IMG/VR virus record: IMGVR_UViG_3300013232_000807
Direction: 5' to 3' (one strand)
Length of the DNA: 21,929 nucleotides
Source of the DNA: a virus
The translations under genes and the position numbers were made by a program. Each line of letters starts with the position of its first letter. Positions within the stretch are counted from its first letter, which is position 1. Below, piece by piece: positions 6,272 to 12,987 of this stretch. Under the pieces are notes generated by a model that saw nothing but the letters and a program-made list of their open reading frames with translations, made no database searches and had not been told where the DNA came from.

Positions 6272-7197
6272 TGAAGGTGGTACTGCGACCGGGTGACACC
6301 CTCGAGGTGGAGCTCGACGACACGGACGGGCACTTCGAGATCAAGTACGACGTCGACCTCGGGAAGCTCGAGGTCACGAGTGACCTGCCCGACACTCAGG
6401 GGCGCGTGGGAGTCATCTACAGCGAGGTGTTCCTCTCGCCGCGTGGGCGGATGATCGACGCGCTGAAGAACGGCGAGGACCCGCACCTGGACACGGCAGA
6501 GGCCCTGGATGAGGACGTGGCACTCTCGCGCTGGAAGCGCGCGCAGTCCCAGGCGGCTGCGGCCCGGCGCCTCGCCGTGACCACCGGGATTCCGGTGATC
6601 ATGGTGGCACGTGACCCGAACGTGCCCAAGCCGCGCACGTTCTACAAGACCACGTACGAGGTCCAGGTCCTGCATCAGGAGCCCATCCCGGCGGAGTGGG
6701 ACCTCAAGGACGTCCTCGACGAGTGCGACGACGGTGCGTACTCGGGCGACGTCCTGAGCCAGGAGAGCGTGGTCGTGGGGCCGCAGACGATGCGGAAGCT
6801 CCTCATCAAGCAGGGGTCGACTCCCGAGTTCTTCGACATCGCCAACGGGGACGAGATCGACTTCAAGGACGTGGTGATCGAGCGGGACGGCGTCCGCGTC
6901 ACCTGGACGTGGATCGGCGAGGGAGTCGACGGCGAGTTCGACTTCGAGCACGTGAGCGAGGGGGACGAACCGCGTCTCCGCGTGGATGTGGTCGTACTCA
7001 AGAACGAGCACGAGAGCGACACCTTCTCGTACTGCACCCTGGCGCCGACATGGACCTCCAGAGAGGGACTGGAGCGCATGACCAACGAGCTCGTGCGCCG
7101 CATCTACGCGGACCCGCAGAACCCGAGGAACGCCGTGGAGATGTGGACGCACCTGACGCGCCCGGACCCTGCCGAGATGGACGGAGGCGTCGAGTGA
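6271..7197 (+). CDS. hypothetical acidic protein (308 aa)
   Basis: TGATG overlap. RBS GGAGGAG upstream. Confidence 0.65.
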   Translation: MKVVLRPGDTLEVELDDTDGHFEIKYDVDLGKLEVTSDLPDTQGRVGVIYSEVFLSPRGRMIDALKNGEDPHLDTAEALDEDVALSRWKRAQSQAAAARRLAVTTGIPVIMVARDPNVPKPRTFYKTTYEVQVLHQEPIPAEWDLKDVLDECDDGAYSGDVLSQESVVVGPQTMRKLLIKQGSTPEFFDIANGDEIDFKDVVIERDGVRVTWTWIGEGVDGEFDFEHVSEGDEPRLRVDVVVLKNEHESDTFSYCTLAPTWTSREGLERMTNELVRRIYADPQNPRNAVEMWTHLTRPDPAEMDGGVE

Positions 7198-7391: not shown

Positions 7392-7663
7392 TGGCACAGA
7401 AACTGGTCTACTGGCACGTCATCGCCAGCATGACGCTCGAGAAGCTCGACAATCTGCCCGGGCCCGTGGAGTTCCGGCACCGCGAGGTCAAGCGCGGGAA
7501 GCCCGGGAACCTCGTGAGGACGCGCAAGCGCTACGTCGGCATCGGGTGGGTGGACGAGGGGGCGCCACACGGCGACGAGCCCATCCTCGTGATGGAGAAG
7601 GGCAGCAAGGACATCCCCGAGGGCATCGAGATGTACGAGGCGGCGGCATGCTCGTCGGTCTGA
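7391..7663 (+). CDS. hypothetical protein (90 aa)
   Basis: TGATG overlap. AAGAAGGGG upstream. Confidence 0.55.
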   Translation: MAQKLVYWHVIASMTLEKLDNLPGPVEFRHREVKRGKPGNLVRTRKRYVGIGWVDEGAPHGDEPILVMEKGSKDIPEGIEMYEAAACSSV

Positions 7664-8052
7664 ACAAGGCGTACCTGATGGGGCGCGCCGGGCGGGACGC
7701 AGAGATGAGCGCGATGGCCCCGAGCGGTACCCCCGTGTGCAAGGTGTCCATCTGCACGCCAACTGCGCGGCGGGTCGACGGGCAGTGGGTGGAGGACGTC
7801 GACTGGCACAACCTCGTCGGCTACAACGCCATCGCCGAGGCGATGGCTGGAATCCGGAAGGGCGTCGGGTTCATGGTGGAGTGCAAGATCAGCCCGAAGA
7901 AGTGGACGGACGCGAAGGGCAAGCTCCACTACCAGATCGACCTCCTGGTCACCAAGGTGCTGTGGATCGGCGGGGGTGTCCTCCGCACCGGACCTGGGGG
8001 AGCCGCCTCCCTTCGACTTCGGAGACCCCGAGTGAGGCGCCTCCATGCCTGA
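7648..8052 (+). CDS. ssb: single-stranded DNA-binding protein (OB fold); C-terminal tail ambiguous (see findings)
   Basis: NKAYLMGRAGRDAEM..GTPVCKVSICT and DWHNLVGYNAIAEAMAGIRKGVGFMVECKISPKKWTDAKGKLHYQIDLLVTKVLWIGGG align to E. coli SSB blocks NKVILVGNLGQDPEVRY..AVANITLAT and [52 protein letters not shown]..GG (E. coli sequence recalled from memory). Confidence 0.8.
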   Translation: MLVGLNKAYLMGRAGRDAEMSAMAPSGTPVCKVSICTPTARRVDGQWVEDVDWHNLVGYNAIAEAMAGIRKGVGFMVECKISPKKWTDAKGKLHYQIDLLVTKVLWIGGGVLRTGPGGAASLRLRRPRVRRLHA

Positions 8053-8347
8053 CTACGCGAAGAACGACCCAGGAGGATGGTGCGGCGACAAGAGCCGCGG
8101 CGCCGCCCTCGGACGTGCCACGATCACCGACGAGCCCAAGGACTTCGCCGGGAAGCTGAGCGTGCAGCGCGTGCGCCTCAACTCCGGCGGCTACGACAAG
8201 AACGGCACCTACTTCGGTCACGGACAGCCCCTGTACTGGTGCGCGAACGAGGAGTGCACCGTCGACTTCATGCTACGCGCACGAGACCGCGAGGATGCGG
8301 TCTCGCAGGTGCGCCAGGACTACCCCAACGCCAAGATCAGGAGGTGA
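8045..8347 (+). CDS. hypothetical protein (100 aa)
   Basis: GAGG lies 7 nt upstream of the ATG. GC3-rich. Confidence 0.6.
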   Translation: MPDYAKNDPGGWCGDKSRGAALGRATITDEPKDFAGKLSVQRVRLNSGGYDKNGTYFGHGQPLYWCANEECTVDFMLRARDREDAVSQVRQDYPNAKIRR

Positions 8348-10434: not shown

Positions 10435-11922
10435 ATGGACCTGCATTTCTCCGTCGATGACCCCGAGGTCGTCCACTACCTCACCAAGGCCAGCGACCAG
10501 GACCTCCTGCAGCGTGCGCGCACCGCGCTCCGCATCGGCGTGCTCGCCCTCAGCAGCGCCGAAGGCGTCATCGACGCCGAGGCCATCAAGCGCGAGGGTG
10601 CCGCCATCGTGGGCGGTGTCCGCTCGATGCTCGACGCCCACGCGTTCGAGGTGAGCCAGAAGGTCGGCAGCGCCCTGGGCGCGTACCTGGACCCCAAGAC
10701 CGGGGCCTTCCAGCAGGGCATCGAGCGGCTCGTGGCGCGCGAGGGGCTCGTGGTGAAGGACCTCGAGACGGCCATGCTCGCGCACGTCGGCGAGAGCGGC
10801 ACCGTGGCCCGCACGATCGCGCGCATGGTGGGCGAGGGCAGTCCCCTCCTCCGCCTGCTCGACCCCAAGCAGCGCGAGAGCCTCCTCGCGCAGGTGGAGG
10901 CCGTGCTCGGCAAGTCCCTCGAGGCGCAGCGCGCGGCCGTGGCGCAGGAGTTCAGCCTCGACCGCCCCGACTCCGCCCTGTCCCACCTCGTGCGCGAGAT
11001 CACGGAGCGCAACGCCTCCTTCAGCCGGGAGCTCTCGCTCGACCACGCGGACTCCGCGCTGTCTCGACTCGTGGGGCGCGTCGAGGAGGCCCAGCGCCTC
11101 ACCGTCGCCCAGTTCAGCCTGGACAACGCGGACAGCGGCATGACCCGCATGCGCGGGCTGATCGACGAGCACTTCCGCACGCTCGGAGAGGCGCAGCAGG
11201 CGTTCCAGACCAGCGTGCTGGAGATGCTGGTGCGCTTCGACGAGAAGAAGAAGGTCGCGGCGACCGGCACCCAGCACGGACAGGCGTTCGAGTACGCGCT
11301 GCTCACCACCCTGGAGGCCCTGGCGGAGGGCGCCGGCGAGCTCTTCGACGCCACGGGCATGACCACCGGCCTCGTGCGCAACTGCAAGGTCGGCGACGCG
11401 GTCATCACCATCGGGCCCGACCGGTTGGGTGCCGGGCAGAAGATCGTCTACGAGGCCAAGGAGGACCAGTCCTACGGGGACACCAAGGCCCTGCAGGAGA
11501 TCGAGCTCGGGATGAAGAACCGGGACGCGCGCGTCGGCGTCTTCGTGTTCAGCAAGCGCACGGCCCCCGAGGGGATGAAGCCGCTGCGGCGCATCGGCGA
11601 CGCCGTCCTGGTCGTGTGGGACCAGGAGGACGAGCGGTCCCACGTCTACCTCGAGGCGGCGCACGCCCTGGCCACGGCGCTCATCGCCAAGGCCGCGCGT
11701 GAGAAGGACAGCGTCCAGTTCGACTTCAGCAAGGTCGACACCGAGATCGCCGAGATCGAGAAGATGGTCGAGCGCGTGGCGAACATCGGGAAGAAGTGCG
11801 AGACCATCCGCTCCGCGGCGAACAGCATCGAGGAGGAGGTCCGCATCACGAGCGAGAAGATCGGGGGCAGCGTGCGGCGCCTGCGGGCGCAGGTCGCGAG
11901 CCTCAAGGTCGAGCTCGAGTAG
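10435..11922 (+). CDS. helical-repeat protein with C-terminal PD-(D/E)xK nuclease-like domain (495 aa)
   Basis: A long GC3-rich ORF. The C-terminal region reads AFEYALL...GDAVITIGPD-x11-YEAKED, fitting E...PD...ExK. The N-terminal half is alpha-helical and carries three 27-aa repeats. Confidence 0.75.
   Translation: MDLHFSVDDPEVVHYLTKASDQDLLQRARTALRIGVLALSSAEGVIDAEAIKREGAAIVGGVRSMLDAHAFEVSQKVGSALGAYLDPKTGAFQQGIERLVAREGLVVKDLETAMLAHVGESGTVARTIARMVGEGSPLLRLLDPKQRESLLAQVEAVLGKSLEAQRAAVAQEFSLDRPDSALSHLVREITERNASFSRELSLDHADSALSRLVGRVEEAQRLTVAQFSLDNADSGMTRMRGLIDEHFRTLGEAQQAFQTSVLEMLVRFDEKKKVAATGTQHGQAFEYALLTTLEALAEGAGELFDATGMTTGLVRNCKVGDAVITIGPDRLGAGQKIVYEAKEDQSYGDTKALQEIELGMKNRDARVGVFVFSKRTAPEGMKPLRRIGDAVLVVWDQEDERSHVYLEAAHALATALIAKAAREKDSVQFDFSKVDTEIAEIEKMVERVANIGKKCETIRSAANSIEEEVRITSEKIGGSVRRLRAQVASLKVELE
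10945..11163 (+). repeat. three in-frame tandem copies of an 81-nt (27-aa) unit inside the 10435 CDS
   Basis: The three units are QEFSLDRPDSALSHLVREI / RELSLDHADSALSRLVGRV / AQFSLDNADSGMTRMRGLI. At DNA level they read gagttcagcctcgaccgccccgactccgcc..., gagctctcgctcgaccacgcggactccgcg... and cagttcagcctggacaacgcggacagcggc.... Confidence 0.6.
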
Positions 11923-11923
11923 G

Positions 11924-12151
11924 TCAGGCGGAGCGCGCTCCCTCCAGCGGGGGAGTGCGCTCGTTAGCCCCTACCTCCTCGGTGGCCTCTTCCTCTTCTG
12001 TCTTCGGGGTGGAGGACTCAGCCGCGACGGAGCGCAGTCTGGTGGAGAGGCTCTTGGCGATGACGGGTGTGCACGCGGAGGCCGTGAAGGCGCCGAGTGC
12101 CTCTCCCACCGTCACCTGGCGTGCCAGGCTGTGCATGCGGTCGAACGACAT
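11924..12151 (-). CDS. small acidic hypothetical protein (75 aa), translationally coupled to 12151..12615
   Basis: ATG at 12151-12149 overlaps the TGA of the upstream minus-strand gene (TGATG). Mostly GC3-rich. Its 3' end overlaps the hairpin at 11931-11962, which lowers confidence. Confidence 0.35.
   Translation of the reverse strand: MSFDRMHSLARQVTVGEALGAFTASACTPVIAKSLSTRLRSVAAESSTPKTEEEEATEEVGANERTPPLEGARSA
11931..11969 (+). terminator. candidate (possibly bidirectional) terminator hairpin followed by TCGTTAGCC
   Basis: 12-bp stem GAGCGCGCTCCC / GGGAGTGCGCTC (one G-U pair) with loop TCCAGCGG, 9 nt after the stop at 11922. Confidence 0.5.
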
Positions 12152-12615
12152 CAGCGGCGCTCGGCCGGGGACTCGATGGCGGGGGGAGTGACACTCGGGA
12201 CGAACTTGTCGGCCAGGTACGAGACGCCCAGCAAGTTCAGGATGACCATCACGACTCCAAGGAGAAGCAGCTGAAGCGGCTGTGATGTCCATAGCCGATT
12301 CATCCACGCTTCGCGCATCCCGCGCTCTTCCTTGTCGCTTTCCTTCTTCGCCTTCGCATTCGCGACGTCGAAGGCGAGTCGGTCCTCTTCCACCTTCGCG
12401 ATCCGCGTCAGCGCGTTCGCCGCCGCACCGGCCGCAGCGGCCGCAGCCGTGGTCGCTTGCGTATTCTGGTCCACGGACTTCTCAACGGCCTCGAGACGGC
12501 CGCCAAGCCGCTCGAGGGCTCGTGTGGACTCGATCATCCACTCCTGAACAGGATCCATGAGGTCCCTCTCCTTCACTGCGGTAGGGCGGTCGTCGACTGG
12601 GTCAGTGGGCGGCAT
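12151..12615 (-). CDS. tail-anchored membrane protein (154 aa; Ala-rich, C-terminal TM helix)
   Basis: Minus-strand ATG at 12615-12613 is preceded by GAGG. The hydrophobic stretch QPLQLLLLGVVMVILNLLGVSYL lies near the C-terminus. Codon usage is less GC3-biased than in neighbouring genes. Confidence 0.6.
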   Translation of the reverse strand: MPPTDPVDDRPTAVKERDLMDPVQEWMIESTRALERLGGRLEAVEKSVDQNTQATTAAAAAAGAAANALTRIAKVEEDRLAFDVANAKAKKESDKEERGMREAWMNRLWTSQPLQLLLLGVVMVILNLLGVSYLADKFVPSVTPPAIESPAERR

Positions 12616-12688
12616 CGAGGACCTCGGAGGTGGATTCTAACAGGTCGCCCCATCCCCAAGAACAGACGAATACCAGCCCCCGACCGGG

Positions 12689-12694
12689 CATAAG
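12689..12694 (+). promoter_or_regulatory. CATAAG motif upstream of 12721 gene (divergent intergenic region)
   Basis: Sequence ccgaccgggCATAAGgagatgtccaagggagg lies 26 nt upstream of the ATG at 12721. Confidence 0.4.
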
Positions 12695-12720
12695 GAGATG
12701 TCCAAGGGAGGACCATCATC

Positions 12721-12987
12721 ATGAGCGATCGCAAGAGCTACAGGTTCAGCATCGGAGACCGTGTGCAGGTCTCCGCAGCGAGGGAAGGTCGTGACCCCGG
12801 CGGCATCGGCGAGGTCACGGCGCGGGAGTCGAAGGAGGACAACAGCGGCGAGACCCTCCTCTACCGCGTGAAGATCGACGGCCACCCCGGCCAGGAGCGG
12901 CTGGCCTCCGAGAAGGGCCGCCGGAATCTCGGGTTCTGGTACGCCGACGAGCTCGTCAACCCCGCCCCCTACGCCACCACCACCTGA
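12721..12987 (+). CDS. small hypothetical protein (88 aa)
   Basis: RBS GGGAGG precedes the ATG. GC3-rich. Confidence 0.6.
   Translation: MSDRKSYRFSIGDRVQVSAAREGRDPGGIGEVTARESKEDNSGETLLYRVKIDGHPGQERLASEKGRRNLGFWYADELVNPAPYATTT

Follow-up and report, generated by a model that had tools for sequence, protein, structure and literature searches.

A probable one-base G-run indel takes the acidic tail of a phage SSB gene out of frame

The SSB gene at positions 7648–8052 (plus strand) of the virus record IMGVR_UViG_3300013232_000807 encodes, as annotated, a protein of 134 amino acids with an arginine-rich C-terminus, whilst an acidic, proline-rich sequence lies in the +1 frame over the same stretch of DNA. 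Which of these is the real C-terminus of the protein, and how did the other come to be there? The initial annotation of the window (the whole 21,929-nucleotide stretch analysed here) pointed to a run of five G residues at 7996–8000 and noted that skipping one G at this position gives EPPPFDFGDPE with a TGA stop at 8033–8035, close to the GAGG at 8034–8037 that precedes the ATG of the next gene at 8045; direct reading of the sequence bears out each of these points. It listed three explanations, namely a homopolymer error, a programmed +1 frameshift and a tail-less SSB, a set that has proved to be the right one, although the programmed shift is disfavoured by the orthologues described below.

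That the gene is an SSB gene, as first proposed, is confirmed by several matches. Residues 5–104 of the predicted protein align with positions 1–101 of the 104 in the Pfam profile PF00436 (E=5.2e-14), PHROG 44 also matches (E=9e-11), and crystal structures of E. coli-type SSBs in the PDB match with E values of approximately 3e-12 to 6e-12. These matches place the predicted protein in the bacterial/phage OB-fold SSB family (PF00436). In E. coli SSB, residues W54, H55 and W88 are ssDNA-stacking and tetramer-interface residues. Equivalents of all three are present in the window protein, where dWHnlv lies opposite eWHrvv, and KWTD opposite KWTD, in the alignment with 1EYG. In common with the E. 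coli protein (PDB 1EYG/1EQQ), the window protein has a single OB fold of around 105 residues in which the 'DWHN' (W54/H55) and 'KWTD' (W88) elements align. The OB-fold domain is encoded in frame 0 by codons 1–109 (MLVGLNK...VLWIGG; 7648–7974, plus strand), and the first 16 nt from its ATG at 7648 are shared with the upstream gene, an overlap also found in the nearest assembly (L001, below).

Relatives of this SSB are rare. A word-indexed search of 5.8 billion proteins returned one close relative only (P0001, 131 amino acids, 92% identity over 81% of the query), encoded on two contigs (L001 and L002) that come from two different samples and are 99.9% identical to each other. One further family member (P0002, 123 amino acids, 63% identity) was recovered by an exhaustive HMMER search with P0001 and sits on phage contigs of 139 kb and 188 kb (L004 and L005, listed from two samples, Logan and JGI). 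There are thus two independently assembled orthologue lineages, P0001 (L001/L002; SSB locus at L001 1245–1640) and P0002 (L004/L005; SSB locus at L004 5001–5372), both metagenomic and uncharacterised, that share their gene neighbourhood with the window SSB. L001 is the nearest assembly to the window, at 88% nucleotide identity. No near-identical assembly was found by megablast among GenBank phages or PLSDB plasmids, nor was one present in IMG/VR, the JGI metagenomes or the GTDB genomes. Looking up the SSB and the downstream gene by exact protein sequence, and searching the index of 5.8 billion proteins, gave no identical or near-identical record, and tblastn of the SSB and of the GyrB-like protein against phage records gave distant matches only (<35% and ~46% identity, respectively).

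Six genes in the window have homologues in the same order on L004 and L005, with 30–70% amino acid identity, and this synteny identifies the window as part of a large phage genome of high GC content (67%); no near relative of the window was found among GenBank phages. The 100 amino acid gene downstream of the SSB gene (8034–8347 on the plus strand including its GAGG, with its stop at 8345–8347, from the sequence and the ORF list) has a homologue with 48% identity on L004/L005, located two genes past SSB with one 151 amino acid gene in between. Elsewhere, the window encodes a dCMP deaminase and a GyrB/ParE-like topoisomerase (18092–20002, plus strand); a 282-nt stretch of the latter gene is 77% identical to megaplasmid DNA of Streptantibioticus cattleyicolor, a weak hint that the host may be actinobacterial. 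An 868 amino acid ORF at 13413–16019 (plus strand) has a very strong coding signal (GC3 0.98), and a 495 amino acid ORF at 10435–11922 is 70% identical to a gene on L004/L005; neither has a PHROG match. Genes are tightly packed on the plus strand outside 11941–12721, where the codon-position GC signal is irregular and in part favours the minus strand (ORF 12151–12615, 154 amino acids, ATG start); a divergent gene may lie here, or the stretch may be regulatory or non-coding.

Evidence for the position of the frame break comes from alignment with the two orthologue lineages. Measured over OB-fold residues 1–109 only, identity is 91% to L001 and 64% to L004, and in both lineages frame-0 tblastn similarity ends at residue 109 of 134 (...VLWIGG), rather than continuing up to ...VLWIGGGVLRTGPGG as had been thought. 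DNA alignments (A1 and A3) and blastn reveal one unpaired window base inside GGCGGGGGTG (about 7969–7978) relative to both lineages, which read GAC-GGAGTG (L001/L002) and GAG-GGGATG (L004/L005) opposite it. The G5 run at 7972–7976 (plus strand; GGC GGG GGT) has one extra base compared with all of the orthologues and is the actual point of the frame break. At this site the orthologues have neither a G run nor a break in frame, and their tails are encoded in a single continuous ORF (GAC GGA GTG and GAG GGG ATG). The remaining gaps in the alignments of the SSB gene are compensated or are multiples of three. The window is otherwise syntenic with the orthologue contigs, with four other comparable genes aligning approximately end to end and the gene at 6307–7197 aligning to residue 281 of 296. 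Compared with its relatives, the window differs in length by one base, the change lies within a mononucleotide run alone, and the coding signal carries on in the shifted frame. The break matches a common phenomenon, the one-base homopolymer indel.

The initial annotation was therefore right about the tail, which follows a G run in the +1 frame, but wrong about which run it is, as the DNA alignments put the extra base at 7972–7976. The second G5 run (7996–8000, plus strand) begins 24 nt further downstream and has the same GGG GGN phase in frame 0 (GGG GGA), and a break here would arithmetically also reach the frame that ends in EPPPFDFGDPE, giving ...LWIGGGVLRTGPGEPPPFDFGDPE. The orthologue DNA, however, aligns without a gap through 7996–8000, the unpaired base being found at 7969–7977. 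Furthermore, the +1 frame of the seven codons that separate the two runs encodes VSSAPDL, with six of the seven residues matching VSSVPDL in P0001, whereas frame 0 between the runs (7975–7995) gives GVLRTGP, for which there is no match. Read in the +1 frame, the second run gives CTG GGG GAG (L-G-E); this is phase 2, in which G runs inside genes of the window occur most often. We consider a break at the second run to be extremely improbable, and the product ...GVLRTGPGEPPPFDFGDPE that had been predicted from it is replaced by ...LWIGGVSSAPDLGEPPPFDFGDPE, which a shift at 7972–7976 would give.

With one G removed at 7972–7976, the window protein would end ...VLWIGGVSSAPDLGEPPPFDFGDPE and be colinear with its orthologues, of which P0001 ends ...VLWIDGVSSVPDLGEPPLDETPFPEEGS and P0002 ends ...VLWVEGMAAPVPGEPPPLEEG (finishing ...GEPPPLEEG), and with the more distant P0156, which ends ...VGEPPTDTHEGPEEE. 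The ancestral, authentic tail of the +1 frame, VSSAPDLGEPPPFDFGDPE (7976–8035, plus strand, with the TGA stop at 8033–8035), corresponds to VSSVPDLGEPPLDETPFPEEGS in P0001 and MAAPVPGEPPPLEEG in P0002. Ten of the 12 residues that follow the run match P0001 in this frame (VSSAPDLGEPPP versus VSSVPDLGEPPL). Frame 0 instead reads ...TGPGGAASLRLRRPRVRRLHA (...GGAASLRLRRPRVRRLHA) to a TGA at 8050–8052. Its Arg-rich read-through, VLRTGPGGAASLRLRRPRVRRLHA (7978–8052, plus strand), arises from the extra G and displays no similarity to any relative compared. The two frames thus specify very different ends, the one basic (AASLRLRRPRVRRLHA), the other acidic and Pro-rich (GEPPPFDFGDPE) with Phe but no final PF. 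Comparison with SSB orthologues had been proposed at the outset as a check: no relative shares the Arg-rich C-terminus, and both P0001 and P0002 carry the acidic tail in frame. Judged by these alignments, the Arg-rich end is not a real conserved tail.

The pattern of substitution points in the same direction. In the 36 nt past the run there are six differences from L001, four of which fall on third positions of the +1 frame. Read as codon changes, they comprise four synonymous and two non-synonymous changes in the +1 frame, as against one synonymous and four non-synonymous in frame 0, a pattern that identifies +1 as the selected frame from 7976 onward. Codon usage agrees: GC3 is 0.95 for the gene set of the window, 0.62 for the frame-0 extension and 0.84 for the +1 tail, whose codon usage is good, and ten of the 24 codons in the extension are rare ones with a within-family usage of 0.07 or less (GGA twice, CCT, CTT twice, CGA twice, AGA, AGG and CAT). 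The last 20 codons of the annotated SSB gene have a GC3 of 0.55, the lowest of the 32 predicted genes (the others range from 0.65 to 1.0). Since the in-frame tails of the orthologues are likewise low in GC3 (0.59 and 0.40), the argument from codon usage is supportive rather than decisive and the comparative evidence carries the case. The second-lowest value for the last 20 codons (0.65) belongs to the GyrB/ParE-like gene, in which no frame break is indicated as its profile match is complete (residues 2–624 of 636). An open +1 frame of 19 codons is unremarkable by chance in DNA of 67% GC, and likeness to the E. coli tip would by itself be anecdotal; it is the orthologue comparison that makes the reality of the +1 tail solid.

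Could the sequence be correct and the SSB truly basic-tailed, or lacking an acidic tail? The protein might then be a neofunctional or defence-escape allele for which the acidic tail is dispensable. SSBs of this general kind do exist amongst the more distant relatives: P0004, P0157, P0019 and P0016 (encoded on L006, L007, L008 and L009–L011, respectively) are 110–119 amino acids long and truly short-tailed or non-acidic, and no acidic tail is hidden in their other frames, which are those of the next genes. In three of these four (L006, L007 and L009) the SSB gene overlaps the start of the next gene, whilst in L008 the neighbour lies on the opposite strand; the gene that follows SSB in L009 is RecA-like. 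In addition, phage SSB genes are known targets of mutations that allow escape from Retron-Eco8 and DARNA. The escapes described in the papers on these SSB-sensing defences are, however, point mutations, namely T7 M176R, which lies on the outer surface, S132P and Y158C (Y158 being a key OB-fold residue), and not frameshifts of the tail, and those of stated location (T7 M176R, Y158) lie outside it. The Arg-rich extension of the window SSB, moreover, has no homologue and a non-coding-like codon usage, and the +1 tail is undecayed and has kept the family motif. That the window SSB is genuinely without its acidic tail is, in our view, very unlikely.

The intact +1 tail with its family motif is also what would be expected were the frame break bypassed by a programmed +1 ribosomal frameshift, in which a tRNA-Gly slips at GGG followed by the rare codon GGU (or, at the second run, GGA) to produce acidic-tailed and Arg-rich isoforms in a set ratio. 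Each of the two G5 runs is phased GGG GGN and leads into a Gly codon that is rarely used (0.09 and 0.07), and the data are from Illumina sequencing, with no frame break at any other homopolymer. As in known +1 systems (prfB RF2 and P-site slippage of the Ty1 type), a rarely used codon follows a slippery one in the P site (GGG G), and the +1 product is conserved. Unlike in those systems, the site itself is not conserved in the orthologues, the A site holds no stop codon, no stimulator could be demonstrated, and the zero-frame product lacks conservation. Both orthologue lineages encode the tail directly, with neither a G run nor a frame break, and the frame-0 extension is unconserved with poor codon usage. 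The predicted fold of 7960–8060 is no better than that of shuffled sequences (z=0.22). Three further phase-0 GGG GGC runs sit in ordinary genes of the window, where no tRNA (such as a quadruplet-reading suppressor) or Rfam element was found, and a full-text literature search returned no paper joining programmed frameshifting with SSB. The A-site GGU usage of 0.09 is measured on the codons of the phage's own genes rather than on host tRNA levels. Programmed frameshifting at this locus appears improbable.

An accidental one-base indel in the G run of an ordinary SSB gene, with the real tail in the +1 frame, is very probably the correct explanation. In the window sequence only, a run of four Gs has become five (7972–7976) in a bacterial-type SSB gene carried by a large phage of high GC content, and the last 20 or so codons are put out of frame. 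The annotated frame then reads a meaningless Arg-rich extension that happens to be open to 8052, and the family's real tail (VSSAPDLGEPPPFDFGDPE, stop at 8033–8035) is left in the +1 frame. Rather than a recoding device, the frame break would be a consensus error that arose in sequencing, assembly or library preparation, or else a slippage mutation of very recent date in the sequenced phage. One point counted against an accidental indel is that in GGG GGU a slippery GGG precedes a rare Gly codon (usage 0.09) at the A site, which formally allows some +1 slippage. Known homopolymer assembly indels and slipped-strand mutations have the same features as the window, namely a mononucleotide run that is one base longer than in all relatives and a downstream coding signal that is intact in the shifted frame. 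The window differs from them in deriving from an Illumina (Nextera) library, which is not a homopolymer-prone platform, and in presenting this sole case in 21.9 kb.

The origin of the data can be read from the end of the window, the last 46 bases of which (21884–21929) are read-through into a Nextera transposase adapter, comprising CTGTCTCTTATACACATCTGACGCTGCCGACGA, the i5 index TCTACTCT and then GTGTA. The same bases recur, at 91–100% identity, at the ends of numerous unrelated records from phages and plasmids, and a C-rich stretch of low complexity lies just before them. The end of the contig is thus artefactual, with the ORF at 21545–21904 running into the adapter, and the adapter left in place indicates that the window was assembled from untrimmed Illumina reads, the absence of trimming signalling light quality control. 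Illumina chemistry rarely miscounts homopolymer runs of five bases. The window contains 43 homopolymer runs of at least five bases, and neither the gene-frame map nor colinearity with the orthologues indicates a frame break at any of the other 42; the GC3 frame map, ORF tiling and homopolymer phases likewise revealed no further frame break in the window. In general, then, the assembly is not prone to errors, and there is room for an insertion that is genuinely biological. We would put an artefact and a genuine recent slippage mutation at roughly equal probability, slightly favouring the artefact. Were the five Gs real, slippage of ribosome or polymerase at GGG-GGU could mix acidic-tailed and basic-tailed SSB, or the allele could be a selected tail swap that alters partner recruitment or evades an SSB-sensing defence. 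We think either unlikely, but if true it would represent a lineage-specific, newly arisen recoding or a phase-variable switch on the SSB interaction tail.

What type of tail, then, has been displaced? The C-terminal sequence of E. coli SSB is ...NEPPMDFDDDIPF, with the tip ...EPPMDFDDDIPF. The corrected window protein would share with it an acidic, Pro-rich and disordered C-terminus, the EPP...DF element recalling ...NEPPMDFDDDIPF, and the corrected tail resembles the start of the ...EPPMDFDDDIPF tip with the terminal ...PF missing, as it is in the orthologues. The window tail differs in being only about 20 residues long, essentially without a Gly/Gln-rich linker, in ending ...FDFGDPE rather than in (D/E)-x-P-F with a terminal Phe, and in lying out of frame as deposited. 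Across the subfamily (P0001, P0002 and P0156) the tails are very short, acidic residues come after a GEPP(P) motif, and there is no canonical ...IPF or ...PPF tip: P0001 does have DETPF but this is followed by five further residues (PEEGS), so that the two orthologues end non-canonically in ...TPFPEEGS and ...PPPLEEG. The likeness to E. coli and to the actinobacterial DDEPPF tails suggested by the initial annotation holds as a loose resemblance, but the canonical ...IPF/...PPF end is absent. From its sequence, the corrected window tail is of the family-specific GEPP(P)-acidic type, the same type as in P0001 and P0002, which differ from the window in having the tail in a continuous frame with no G5 run. 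By analogy with other SSBs, the tail would recruit replication or recombination partners, and as both the window and the orthologue tails lack the terminal ...PF, these partners are probably phage-specific rather than those of the host.

The main value of these results is for annotation. The deposited SSB of 134 amino acids has a spurious basic C-terminus, and the correct product is almost certainly a protein of 128 amino acids (7648–7974 joined to 7976–8035) in which the OB fold is followed by the short, acidic and Pro-rich GEPPPFDFGDPE tail. As it stands, the deposited SSB would be misclassified by gene callers and by surveys of tail motifs, and the entry should be annotated as the joined 128 amino acid product or flagged as frameshifted. 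If the extra G were real and bypassed, this would be an unusual case of recoding of an SSB tail, but the comparative evidence is against it. For the biology of these viruses the implications are minor: the presence of very short, non-canonical GEPP(P)-acidic SSB tails in a small family of large, high-GC phages hints at phage-specific partners.
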